Positions 14,457-20,202 of a stretch of DNA of 58,445 nt are shown here, piece after piece. Origin of the DNA: a virus; the UHGV virus genome UHGV-0021275. One strand, given 5' to 3'. The position numbers were made by a program, and so were the translations under genes. A model generated the notes under the pieces. It saw only the letters and a program-made list of their open reading frames with translations. It had not been told where the DNA came from and searched no databases. The stretch's first letter is position 1; each line of letters opens with the position of its first letter.

Positions 14457-16160
14457 CTAATTTGCCTTGCGTGTAAACATTTCATTGATTGCTTCGTTAA
14501 TGCTGACCCCATTACGAATGCTGGAGAACAGCTTCCGCTCTTCCCACGTAGATGACAGATGAATGATCTGACACGATGCGGCTTTCTGTTTCAGCGAACT
14601 CATACGTTCAATAGCCTGCTGATACACGAAATCACCAGACAGCGGTGGACCGAAGAACACCATCGTATCTGCTGCTGCAAGCTCCACACCGAACGCTGTA
14701 GTTCGCGGATGACACAGAATGATCTGGTATGTATTCGGGTCCTCCTGGAACGTACGGAATATTTCATCACGCTTAGCACCAGTAACACGACCATCCACCA
14801 TACCGACACTGTAACCACGTGCTGTAAGTTCGTCATACAAACGGTCAATAACCGCAGTAAATGCACAGAACACCACAACTTTCTGCGTGGCTTCTTTAAT
14901 GATTTCCTCCAGGGCATCCAGTCGTGGTTGCATATCCAACGGCGTTGTACCCTTATCTGTAATCACCACACCGGCAGCGACCTGTAATAGCTTCGATACC
15001 ATCACAGACTTCGTAACAGCTTTAACTGTGGCATCACCAACCATCGCCAGCATGTCACGCTGCAATTGTCTGTAGACTTTCTTCTGGTCCGCCGACAAAT
15101 CACATTCACGACCCGACATGACAACTGGAGGCAAGTCCATAATGTCTTTCTTGTCATACCGGATACACGGCTGCATTTGCATATGGATGATCTTCTTGTA
15201 GCCTTCACGTGGTATCCACTTAAAGCCTTGTTTGATACACACGGCATCACGCCACTGCATGAACGAAAACGATATACGTTCAGGGCGAATAATCTTCATC
15301 TCGCCGTATACCATTTCCGGGTCACCCGGCGTACCTGTCAGGCCCCAGCAATACTCCACACCACGTGCACTTGGCAGACTTTTCTTCCTGTCTTTCGTCT
15401 TCCAGGTACGATCACCATCACGCATTGTCTTACCGGGAATCACTTCCCAACGTGCGCCGTTAATCACCCAATGTGCGGCCTCCCACAGTTGCGTACGCGT
15501 GTTCGCATAGTGTGTCAGTTCATCCACAATGCAAACATTAATACGCCCGGAATCGACAGCCTCACCCAGTTCCTCCCGCAACAACTTCACACCGTCATAG
15601 TTAATAACGTAGAAGTCAGCATCCTGTGCGAGCAGCTCCCTGCGCTTGTTCTTATCACCGTACAGTACCTTCACCGTAGCCTGCGGATACAGCCCATTGA
15701 TTTCTTTCTGCCATACCCCGACCAGATTCGACACCGTTGCAATAATCAGCGTCCCGGTCGCCATGCCATGTTCCTGAAGGAAACGTGCCGCGACAATAGC
15801 AGATGCGGTCTTACCCGTACGCATAGTACTGGTACAGAACGCTCGTGGATTCTCCGTAAAGAATGCCGCCTGTGCGATCTGATGTTGTGCCAGCGGATAT
15901 ACACCTTCAACTTTCGGCAACTGGTACGTATGCCGCAAGATCTCCATACCGTCAGTGCTGTAACCGAGATTCCGCAGCAAACGAATTGCATGCATGTGAT
16001 ATGGCAGAGCAACCAACTTCGCACCCTGATACTCTGTCACGTTCACCGTACCCGGCGGCATAGCATTCACAATGCGATCAGCATCATTTGCTTTAAGCAC
16101 GACAACTTTACGGTCTTCCGTCAGCCACGCACCCGGCTTAATCATTGTGTACTTAGACAT
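14457..16160 (-). CDS. SNF2/DEAD-like superfamily-2 helicase
   Basis: 567 aa. Walker A MRTGKTASAIVAA, DExH-like box CIVDELTHY, and a C-terminal helicase domain. Confidence 0.8.
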   Translation of the reverse strand: MSKYTMIKPGAWLTEDRKVVVLKANDADRIVNAMPPGTVNVTEYQGAKLVALPYHMHAIRLLRNLGYSTDGMEILRHTYQLPKVEGVYPLAQHQIAQAAFFTENPRAFCTSTMRTGKTASAIVAARFLQEHGMATGTLIIATVSNLVGVWQKEINGLYPQATVKVLYGDKNKRRELLAQDADFYVINYDGVKLLREELGEAVDSGRINVCIVDELTHYANTRTQLWEAAHWVINGARWEVIPGKTMRDGDRTWKTKDRKKSLPSARGVEYCWGLTGTPGDPEMVYGEMKIIRPERISFSFMQWRDAVCIKQGFKWIPREGYKKIIHMQMQPCIRYDKKDIMDLPPVVMSGRECDLSADQKKVYRQLQRDMLAMVGDATVKAVTKSVMVSKLLQVAAGVVITDKGTTPLDMQPRLDALEEIIKEATQKVVVFCAFTAVIDRLYDELTARGYSVGMVDGRVTGAKRDEIFRTFQEDPNTYQIILCHPRTTAFGVELAAADTMVFFGPPLSGDFVYQQAIERMSSLKQKAASCQIIHLSSTWEERKLFSSIRNGVSINEAINEMFTRKAN

Positions 16161-16624
16161 ACCACCTCTGGCACATGATTGTAGTAAACGTCATTGCGTA
16201 TTGCGCACGCGACAATCTGACGCAGCCATCCTGTGAATGGCAGATTTAACGTTCCTGACTGAATTAAAGCACGCACTTCATCAATGAATGCTGCCAGTCC
16301 TTTGTAATTATGACGGTCAACCAGAAGAGTGATACCGCCACTGGCGCGGATCTCACACATTACCTGTTGCTGCAATATGGTAGGTGCTCCCTGTCGCACT
16401 ACCTGCCCTTTATTGGGTCCCCGCGTAATACGCTCTCCCCGTCGGTGCCGTAGCGCGTCCTCCTTCGCTTCAACTTTCACACTGATACCATACAGACATA
16501 CGTCGAAGTCTGGTTCACCCGACTTGCCGTATCCCATAGTCATTGGCATGAAATATTTCAGCTTCCGCTCGTCCAGGATTTCTTTAATACGGTCTTTTAC
16601 CCACCCCTCTGGTGTCTTCGCCAT
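16142..16624 (-). CDS. VRR-NUC domain nuclease
   Basis: From the internal Met (MAKTPEGW...). GEPDFDVCLYGISVKVEAKE matches the VRR-NUC PD-(D/E)XK core. Start ATG sits in the motif GGGAGCATAACATTATGG. Confidence 0.65.
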   Translation of the reverse strand: MAKTPEGWVKDRIKEILDERKLKYFMPMTMGYGKSGEPDFDVCLYGISVKVEAKEDALRHRRGERITRGPNKGQVVRQGAPTILQQQVMCEIRASGGITLLVDRHNYKGLAAFIDEVRALIQSGTLNLPFTGWLRQIVACAIRNDVYYNHVPEVVCLSTQ

Positions 16625-19648: not shown

Positions 19649-20202
19649 CCCTCAGACTCCTTACTGAATAATCGTTGCCAGATAGCAGACACATATTTCA
19701 CCTGGTGAACCGCATCATCCAGTGCATTGTGTACCGTACCTTCAAACGGCGTATCTGTCTTCGGGTCAAACCCAAGTTGTCGACCCAGCATCACCATCGT
19801 ACGAACATCACAATCCATCCAGAACGGCCACGCCTTATGCCCCGCACGCTCCAGCGCTCGACGAAGAACCACACAATCAAATCCTGCGCCGTTCGACCAG
19901 ATATACGCAGGACCAACCACGTTCAGATACGACTGAACACGAAGCATAGCGCACATAAAATCCGTCGCATCTTTCGAATTAAACACCTTACGTGCAGCAT
20001 CACTCTGTTCAGCCCACCATTGCATCGTACCCGGTTCAATCACACCACCGTGTTCTACAGCGGAACGTAAGTCGATCTTCACAGAACACGATGACAACTG
20101 TTCCCCGGTCGCAGGATTAAACTGGACAAGACCCACCGATAAAATTGCTGCATCAGGGCCTGTCCCTGCCGTTTCCATATCCACCATGATATGTGCTGTC
20201 AT
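19645..20202 (-). CDS. DEDDh-type 3'-5' exonuclease
   Basis: 185 aa. IMVDMETAG (Exo I), WSNGAGFDCVVL (Exo II), HNALDDAVHQ (Exo III with His). GAGGAG RBS. ATGA overlap with the polymerase gene. Confidence 0.7.
   Translation of the reverse strand: MTAHIMVDMETAGTGPDAAILSVGLVQFNPATGEQLSSCSVKIDLRSAVEHGGVIEPGTMQWWAEQSDAARKVFNSKDATDFMCAMLRVQSYLNVVGPAYIWSNGAGFDCVVLRRALERAGHKAWPFWMDCDVRTMVMLGRQLGFDPKTDTPFEGTVHNALDDAVHQVKYVSAIWQRLFSKESEG

Follow-up and report, generated by a model that had tools for sequence, protein, structure and literature searches.

What is a cluster of nuclease and helicase genes doing around a DNA polymerase gene in the viral genome UHGV-0021275, a stretch of 58,445 nucleotides that was analysed as a whole and is called the window hereafter? 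The cluster lies at positions 14457-20202 on the minus strand and codes for a family A DNA polymerase (PolA), a Cas4/RecB-like nuclease, a VRR-NUC nuclease, an SNF2-family helicase and a DEDDh exonuclease. The answer that we favour, with a probability of roughly two in three, is that the block makes up the core of a conserved module for phage DNA replication and recombination, and that its carrier is an uncharacterised podovirus-like element of Escherichia coli, circular, 58.4 kb in size and probably a phage-plasmid. Judging from the proteins encoded, the most likely role of the block would be replication coupled to recombination and to the debranching of concatemers.

Gene content of the block

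The initial annotation had placed five genes in this interval, and all of them were recovered without mismatch as successive minus-strand open reading frames (ORFs) that occupy it wholly, the sole change being the start codon of the VRR-NUC gene. Their assignment to a DEDDh exonuclease, a PolA with its own exonuclease domain, a Cas4-like nuclease, a VRR-NUC nuclease and an SNF2 helicase proved right in every case on the basis of motifs, Pfam, PHROGs and profile comparisons. With products of 160 to 755 amino acids and family E-values down to 1e-49, the genes are far beyond what chance would produce, and the five encoded proteins keep intact catalytic motifs.

The polymerase gene (17381-19648, minus strand) codes for a family A enzyme of 755 amino acids, with an N-terminal 3'-5' proofreading domain and without a 5' nuclease domain. 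The protein matched phrog_17 over its full length (6e-62) and Pfam DNA_pol_A with 51.3 bits (cut-off 34.3) over residues 375-464 only; it is a divergent member of the family. Both the exonuclease motifs (Exo I, DFET8-11; Exo II, HNARFD75-80; Exo III, YCRND158-162) and the polymerase motifs (A, DSSQVEAR419; B, RNVGKETILGSGY497; C, HDE707) are kept, and they are conserved in the relatives. The position equivalent to residue 762 of the Klenow fragment, set by the spacing of motif B (R497, K501, L505, Y509), is occupied by a leucine (L505). Three insertions, at about residues 273-319, 466-497 and 523-565 and amounting to about 150 residues in total, are specific to the E. coli lineage. In many environmental relatives (loci L002, L013, L068 and others) motif C reads HDA or HDS and not HDE, and these polymerases therefore lack the second catalytic carboxylate (Klenow E883).

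The neighbouring gene (16661-17365, minus strand; 234 amino acids) codes for a Cas4/RecB-like PD-(D/E)XK nuclease with a putative iron-sulphur (Fe-S) cluster. The protein scored 33.4 bits against Pfam PDDEXK_1 (PF12705; cut-off 22; residues 8-219) and 1.5e-19 against phrog_69, and PF12705 was likewise found in 62 of the 65 homologues among the matches listed. When conservation was scored on an alignment of 27 sequences, including homologues down to 24% identity, D117, D132-W-K134, C213, C217 and C222 were invariant, and C19, H47, E88 and Q144 were conserved in more than 90%. Both the PD-(D/E)XK residues and the cysteines, whose loss had been named in advance as the ground for giving up the Cas4-like identity, are kept, and that identity stands. 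The cysteine pattern first described needs a correction, since one N-terminal (C19) and three C-terminal cysteines are indeed present, but the latter are spaced C-x3-C-x4-C and not CxxCxxxxC; this arrangement spans the same length as the C-x2-C-x5-C of the aligned Protein Data Bank (PDB) entry 9iac. Against the PDB, the family profile matched the PD-(D/E)XK proteins 9iac/9iab (5e-7) and Cas4 4r5q (5e-4), with weak matches to AdnAB and SSO0001. A CRISPR-associated Cas4 proper was considered and rejected: the window contains no repeat array of the CRISPR type, and the matches to Cas4 models are weak and partial, so that the protein is Cas4-like in its fold and, putatively, in its cofactor, and is not a Cas protein.

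The following gene codes for a VRR-NUC nuclease of 160 amino acids and putative Holliday-junction resolvase (16142-16624, minus strand), whose identity rests on an exhaustive search, profile comparison and a structure model. The family had been named correctly at the outset, but the gene starts at the ATG at 16624, which is provided with a GGGAG ribosome-binding site, and not at 16648, because the relatives begin at query residue 9, that is, at this ATG; nor does the protein match a Pfam model. Specifically, Pfam returned nothing at E<=10 and NCBIfam likewise nothing, PHROGs gave a marginal match (0.0095), and phmmer against the PDB produced noise only. A word-indexed homologue search retrieved just three near-identical proteins, and single-sequence AlphaFold yielded no usable fold (predicted local distance difference test score 37.8), in contrast to an alignment-based model, which worked. 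When 1.84 billion representatives were scanned exhaustively with HMMER, 382 relatives were recovered at E<=0.001, most of them 100-150 amino acids long. In an alignment of 53 family members E6, K10, D39, E52, K54 and Q85 are invariant, and the catalytic signature (PD ... ExK followed by a conserved Q) is thus retained as D39, E52, K54 and Q85; 10 of these 53 proteins match Hjc in Pfam and four match VRR_NUC. The best PDB matches of the family profile were the VRR-Nuc structures 4QBN (7e-7) and 4QBO (8e-7), followed by RecU (7e-3) and Hjc (0.06), and its comparison with Enc34 ORF8, annotated as VRR-NUC, gave an hhalign probability of 95.6% (E 1.3e-8). By these comparisons the protein is assigned to a divergent VRR-NUC subfamily, the 382 detectable relatives of which represent an annotation gap, having been missed by the Pfam model.

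Standalone VRR-Nuc proteins of bacteria and phages (psNUC, stNUC and saNUC) are dimeric Holliday-junction resolvases, which are selective for DNA structure and leave linear duplexes intact (PMC4103454). These three (PDB 4QBN, 4QBO and 4QBL) measure 92-122 amino acids, whereas the protein of the window, with its 160, carries in addition a basic insertion of about 22 residues after the ExK, between beta3 and alpha2, and two extra C-terminal helices. The 3' end of its gene overlaps the start of the SNF2 gene by 19 nucleotides, which suggests translational coupling of the two.

The SNF2-family ATPase/translocase (14457-16160, minus strand; 567 amino acids) scored 43 bits against SNF2-rel_dom (cut-off 24.9), 44.7 bits against Helicase_C (cut-off 23.5) and 6.5e-77 against phrog_62. 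Motifs I, II and III are present (GKT116, DEL(T)H213 and TGTP275), and a 32-residue insertion lies between the last two. Motif VI (residues 515-525) is a variant, QAIERMSSLKQ, in which the first arginine is kept, the second is a serine, and a lysine or arginine precedes the last glutamine; the canonical QANARVHRAGQ is retained in the aquatic and environmental relatives. Since the variant is conserved in the enterobacterial relatives and loci L084-L086 down to 38% identity (QMFERLSSARQ), it appears to be under selection.

Finally, the first gene of the block (19645-20202, minus strand) codes for a DEDDh 3'-5' exonuclease of the Rv2179c/T4 DexA family (185 amino acids). Pfam PF16473 was matched with 167.9 bits (E 2.3e-49; cut-off 27), residues 4-175 covering profile positions 2-177 of 177, that is, its full length, and phrog_255 'exonuclease' with 6e-58. 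The DEDDh residues are all present, namely D8 and E10 (VDMET), D109 (GFD) and H158/D163 (HNALDD, the H-x4-D of Exo III). The protein is 27% identical to T4/T2 exonuclease A (DexA; E 4e-6), and homologues are carried by 1012 phage records. Members of this family differ in their named substrate, RNA for the exoribonuclease Rv2179c and DNA for T4 DexA.

The block forms the middle of a tightly packed run of ten minus-strand genes, which extends from ParB (21141) to a DUF927 primase-helicase in the order ParB-like protein, exonuclease, PolA, Cas4-like nuclease, VRR-NUC, SNF2, DUF7307 protein, a 438-residue glutamine-rich protein, a small helix-turn-helix (HTH) protein and DUF927. Intergenic distances within the run range from -19 to +44 nucleotides, a Shine-Dalgarno-like sequence stands ahead of every start, and no strong terminator was found inside it. 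The only strong hairpin, which resembles an intrinsic terminator, ends the run after the DUF927 gene (9222-9250, minus strand) and has a 10-bp stem with six GC pairs, followed by a T-rich tail. Because of the short gaps, the Shine-Dalgarno sequence at each gene and the lack of a strong internal terminator, the co-transcription that had been asserted is plausible, but as a predicted transcript only.

The module co-occurs in distant viral genomes

A PolA at about 30% identity is encoded by 80 IMG/VR contigs, and on these loci the Cas4-like gene is found 69 times, the SNF2 gene 59 times, the VRR-NUC gene 57 times and the DUF927 gene 36 times. The gene order is conserved on every long locus, with DUF927 downstream of SNF2 in all 36, and the VRR-NUC gene usually lies upstream of PolA (VRR-PolA-Cas4-SNF2-DUF927). 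Three contigs of 55-63 kb with 32-67% identity (L084, L085 and L086) keep the arrangement of the window from the polymerase onwards, that is, PolA, Cas4-like, VRR-NUC, SNF2, DUF7307, the 438-residue protein, HTH and DUF927. Hence dozens of distant viral genomes are shown to combine PolA, Cas4-like, VRR-NUC, SNF2 and DUF927 genes, in an order that hardly varies.

The combination has also been reported before. In a survey of viral polymerases, group I of the Leu762 PolA had a RecB-like neighbour in 70% of cases, an SNF2-like neighbour in 55% and both in 54% (Nasko et al. 2018, PMC6302109); PolA with RecB-like and SNF2 genes was described as a common type of phage replisome, and Leu762 polymerases were linked to temperate phages (PMC6302109). 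The window has the traits of this group, L505 together with RecB-like and SNF2-like neighbours, and the block would thus match the published arrangement as judged by this residue and by gene neighbours. Like the virioplankton Leu762 group I replisome (Nasko et al. 2018; Schmidt et al. 2014), it lacks a ribonucleotide reductase, none being detected among the window ORFs scanned. It differs from these virioplankton relatives in its E. coli host and phage-plasmid-like context, in the position of VRR-NUC between Cas4 and SNF2, in the three PolA insertions, in a motif C reading HDE (HDA or HDS in the aquatic polymerases), in the altered motif VI of SNF2 and in the addition of the DexA-like exonuclease.

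Among cultured phages, Rhizobium phage RHph_TM3_14A encodes PolA, a RecB-family exonuclease, VRR-NUC and an SNF2 helicase in the order of the window. The Pseudomonas phages taken for comparison were KPP25, phiR18 and CRPAP1904; in Kochitakasuvirus KPP25 and CRPAP1904 we found an Rv2179c-like exonuclease, a DUF7307-like 'minor head protein', PolA, HepA/SNF2 and a RecB-family nuclease. The modules of RHph_TM3_14A and the KPP25 group are only 25-32% identical to that of the window and belong to free-living viruses of other hosts, and KPP25 has a different gene order and no detectable VRR-NUC. The Enc34/Chi-like ('Nazgul-like') module comprises a primase, a regulator, an exonuclease, PolA and VRR-NUC, with a helicase immediately after it (PMC5686142); unlike the window, Enc34 has a gp2.5-type single-stranded DNA-binding protein (SSB; DUF2815) without a recognisable counterpart here, and its exonuclease is longer and of the DUF2800 type.

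At the nucleotide level, megablast of the block found no match in 50,697 phage records, nor in 5,426 complete E. coli genomes; the single sequence to match was plasmid pSTEC648_2, at 79% identity. This circular, non-mobilizable plasmid of 60.5 kb, from the complete genome of a Shiga toxin-producing E. coli strain of sheep, carries the same module together with a holin, a lysozyme, a toxin-antitoxin pair and ParB.

The DEDDh exonuclease is distributed differently from the other four proteins. Both pSTEC648_2 and KPP25 (the latter at 30% identity) have it, and all 80 environmental relatives in IMG/VR lack it. The slot directly upstream of PolA, which holds the DexA/Rv2179c-like gene in the window, is occupied by a DHH/DHHA1 protein in L084 (6814-7827) and by nothing comparable in L085 and L086. 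Because of this pattern, we regard the exonuclease as a lineage-specific, exchangeable accessory.

In conclusion, the five genes form a widespread and already described type of phage replication-recombination module. The block itself therefore adds little, its layout being among the commonest of phage replisomes. Its practical value is that a layout known mostly from uncultured aquatic viruses is found here in a tractable E. coli host, on an element that apparently lives as a plasmid in many isolates, so that the roles of SNF2, VRR-NUC and the putative Fe-S nuclease in phage replication could be approached by genetics. A search of the literature returned no publication that joins VRR-NUC, SNF2, Cas4, DNA polymerase and phage.

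Proposed mechanism and alternative readings

How would these proteins act together? The DUF927 primase-helicase and the proofreading, Leu762-type PolA would make up the replisome. DNA ends are resected by RecB/Cas4-like nucleases, and the putative Fe-S Cas4/RecB-like nuclease of the block would resect double-strand ends in the 5'->3' direction to leave 3' tails, which could prime recombination-dependent replication or anneal into concatemers. The SNF2 translocase would remodel or branch-migrate forks and junctions, and a dimer of the translationally coupled VRR-NUC would cut Holliday junctions and branches, making the concatemers packageable, as T7 endonuclease I and T4 endonuclease VII do. 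The DexA/Rv2179c-like exonuclease, for its part, would trim 3' ends or digest oligonucleotides to mononucleotides.

The enzymes of recombination-dependent replication and DNA maturation in T7 (gp5/gp4/gp2.5/gp3/gp6) and T4 (gp49, UvsW, DexA) follow a comparable logic, with a polymerase and primase-helicase of their own, a 5'-3' exonuclease, a junction resolvase required before packaging, a branch-remodelling superfamily 2 motor and an oligonucleotide exonuclease of the DexA type. In the window we take the Cas4-like nuclease to replace the flap endonuclease-type gp6, VRR-NUC to replace endonuclease I/VII and SNF2 to replace UvsW; presumably, only PolA and DexA are homologous between the two sides.

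Recombination-dependent replication or end processing had been proposed in the initial annotation, and on grounds of homology this is reasonable (VRR-Nuc resolvases, PMC4103454; RecB/Cas4-like resection; PMC6302109), but the block is not unusual, as the 80 viral contigs and the cultured phages illustrate, and the contrast that was drawn with simple theta replication goes further than the sequence allows.

Several observations weigh against the role that we propose. Nothing recognisable as a recombinase or a single-strand annealing protein (RecT, Erf, Sak, UvsX) was found in the ten-gene run, the sole candidates for an annealase or SSB being the 438-residue protein and the DUF7307 protein, neither of which has detectable homology to known ones. 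The insertion and C-terminal extension of VRR-NUC could change its dimerisation and junction cleavage, by analogy with FAN1, in which an insertion produces a monomeric flap nuclease and abolishes junction resolution (Pennell et al. 2014, PMC4103454). The motif VI of SNF2 is without its second arginine, and its ATPase properties may differ. Moreover, the Cas4-like gene of pSTEC648_2 (L001, 11999-12720) has no fewer than four small indels within the first third of its length and appears frameshifted; it is either a pseudogene or the product of assembly errors, and the frameshift suggests that the gene may be dispensable, at least for plasmid maintenance. In the same plasmid two DUF29 genes are inserted between the Cas4-like and VRR-NUC genes.

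An alternative, which we consider unlikely, is that the block serves mainly as the maintenance replicon of a phage-plasmid, with PolA and DUF927 performing theta copying of the circular prophage, ParB and a toxin-antitoxin pair stabilising the element, and the nucleases and SNF2 acting as accessories in repair or fork restart and not driving recombination-dependent replication. The state of the element speaks for it: the window is a cut circle, in that an ORF starting at about 56505 (plus strand) runs off its end and continues as the ORF at 2-4963, and the closest record is the circular, non-mobilizable pSTEC648_2, which persists despite its frameshifted Cas4-like gene. At least 14 clusters of homologues of the 438-residue protein come from E. 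coli isolates and lie on contigs as long as the whole element (58-62 kb), which indicates an extrachromosomal phage or phage-plasmid family; yet a lytic phage present as a contaminant or in the carrier state would be just as likely to yield contigs of this size. Neither an integrase nor a protelomerase or ParA was detected with Pfam or PHROGs among the approximately 50 ORFs scanned, many of which had no match at all. The missing integrase and the tie of Leu762 polymerases to temperate phages (PMC6302109) agree with plasmid maintenance, whereas the want of a ParA partner, together with the fact that no iteron-type origin was identified in the window, does not. Furthermore, the module is found in the virulent phages KPP25 and CRPAP1904 and in many aquatic viral contigs, which a maintenance function would not explain.

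Slightly less probable still is that the nucleases serve mainly to degrade host DNA and scavenge nucleotides, VRR-NUC and the Cas4-like protein breaking the chromosome and the DexA-like enzyme producing mononucleotides for the phage polymerase. In T7, endonuclease I and the gene 6 exonuclease (gp3, gp6) serve both recombination and host-DNA breakdown, and salvage could matter to an element in which no ribonucleotide reductase was detected. The homology of the exonuclease to DexA and the annotation of its KPP25-group homologue for the last step of host-DNA breakdown (PMC13340246) favour this view, but VRR-Nuc proteins are structure-selective, leaving linear duplex uncut (PMC4103454), and most relatives in which the remainder of the module is kept have no such exonuclease, which is thus not integral to it. 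The HigB/HigA-like pair, ParB and a stable plasmid as closest relative make host-DNA degradation a poor fit outside the lytic phase. Thus the suggestion of host-DNA degradation, made in the initial annotation, finds weak support, and for the DexA-like gene only, through its distant homology to T4 DexA.

Very improbable, and rejected by us, is an anti-phage defence or superinfection-exclusion cassette (Hachiman-, Zorya- or DISARM-like) formed by VRR-NUC and SNF2 with or without the Cas4-like protein: helicase-nuclease pairs are typical of defence systems and PADLOC gave weak domain matches of SNF2 to DpdE, ZorD and DrmD (best 2e-10) and of the nuclease to Cas4 and DruK (about 1e-5), but these span only generic helicase and N-terminal nuclease segments, none was obtained for VRR-NUC or PolA and no block protein was matched over its full length, the window contains no CRISPR array, and the genes, which sit between the polymerase and the primase-helicase, co-evolve with the polymerase and are co-conserved across very distant viruses, which is the pattern of core replication genes and not of mobile defence islands.

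The carrier element and its other genes

The replication-recombination module resides on an element that is more interesting than the block itself, as it may represent a PolA-encoding phage-plasmid family of E. coli. Besides the module, the window encodes a terminase, a portal-type protein, a podovirus-type internal virion protein, a lysozyme, ArdA and the HigB/HigA-like toxin-antitoxin pair. In its features it looks like an extrachromosomal phage-plasmid, and it may use more than one mode of replication. We found no literature on pSTEC648, nor on any phage-plasmid with DUF927 and a DNA polymerase.

A wider proposal is tentative, and we would sooner expect it to fail than to hold in full. According to it, the module would be the replicon of an undescribed 58-62-kb phage-plasmid family of E. 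coli and other Enterobacteriaceae, podovirus-like, extrachromosomal and provided with a complete T7-style PolA/primase-helicase replisome, and the changes specific to the lineage would adapt it to alternate between restrained copying as a plasmid and lytic replication driven by recombination. The changes so read are the motif VI variant of SNF2, the larger size of VRR-NUC, the three insertions of PolA, the slot for an exchangeable exonuclease, DexA-like or DHH/DHHA1, and the unclassifiable 438-residue protein.

The remaining genes of the run lie on both sides of the block. At its head, 3 nucleotides upstream of the exonuclease gene, stands a gene for a ParB/Spo0J-family protein (20206-21141, minus strand), which scored 39.2 bits against HTH_ParB, 64.4 against TIGR00180 (cut-off 58.45) and 8e-51 against phrog_1033. 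Downstream of SNF2, a small DUF7307 (Pam3 gp33-like) protein (14002-14412, minus strand) matched PF23984 with 26.1 bits, just under the cut-off of 27, and phrog_13900 with 1.9e-12; it is a conserved companion of the module, with homologues at the same position in pSTEC648_2 (L001), L084 and L085.

The gene for the 438-residue protein follows (12680-13996, minus strand). The protein consists of a conserved N-terminal domain of 255 residues, a linker rich in glutamine and proline, and a conserved C-terminal peptide ending in phenylalanine; in the family alignment the linker is hypervariable and the terminal phenylalanine invariant. Its place between SNF2 and DUF927 is the same in L001, L084, L085, L048, L020 and L012. 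Searches of Pfam, PHROGs, PDB (by profile) and PADLOC returned no match, and comparison with T7 gp2.5 and with the Enc34 ORF6 SSB gave hhalign probabilities below 1%. From its position and architecture, it is a candidate single-stranded DNA-binding or mediator protein.

Next comes the small HTH protein of 91 amino acids (12394-12669, minus strand), with weak matches to HTH_31 and HTH_3, whose gene is a conserved neighbour in L001, L084 and L085. The run closes with the DUF927 primase-helicase (9262-12381, minus strand; 1039 amino acids), which matched Pfam DUF927 (7e-20), phrog_25314 (4e-101), phrog_8841 'DNA primase/helicase' (6e-37) and the NCBIfam model of the replicative helicase Cch1 (5e-11). 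We infer from these matches that it is the replicative helicase of the module.

Elsewhere in the window, the ORF that spans the junction of the circle (56505-58445 and 2-4963, plus strand) exceeds 2,200 amino acids and, with its YkuD L,D-transpeptidase and LPD38 domains, codes for a large polyvalent virion protein. The gene for the antirestriction protein ArdA (31871-32617, minus strand; Pfam E 2.5e-32) lies close to where the early, leftward transcription unit begins. In the same early region a YdcK-type beta-solenoid protein is encoded (30851-31699, minus strand), which in pSTEC648_2 is annotated as polymer-forming cytoskeletal; this protein, or ParB, which has no ParA beside it, could bear on the segregation of the episome.

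A match to the AgrB antisense small RNA (Rfam RF02891; 48.1 bits, gathering score 40) was located at 7595-7680 on the minus strand, between the lysis genes and the HigB/HigA-like toxin-antitoxin pair (7690-8341, minus strand). In E. coli AgrB counteracts the type I toxin dinQ, and by analogy a second addiction or regulatory module may be situated there.

Finally, the early genes, which run leftward, are separated from the structural genes, which run rightward, by a divergent, ORF-poor region of about 1.5-2 kb (33400-35400), which coincides with the minimum of the cumulative GC skew and contains a 25-nucleotide direct repeat at 34198 and 34302. This region is a candidate regulatory or origin region.

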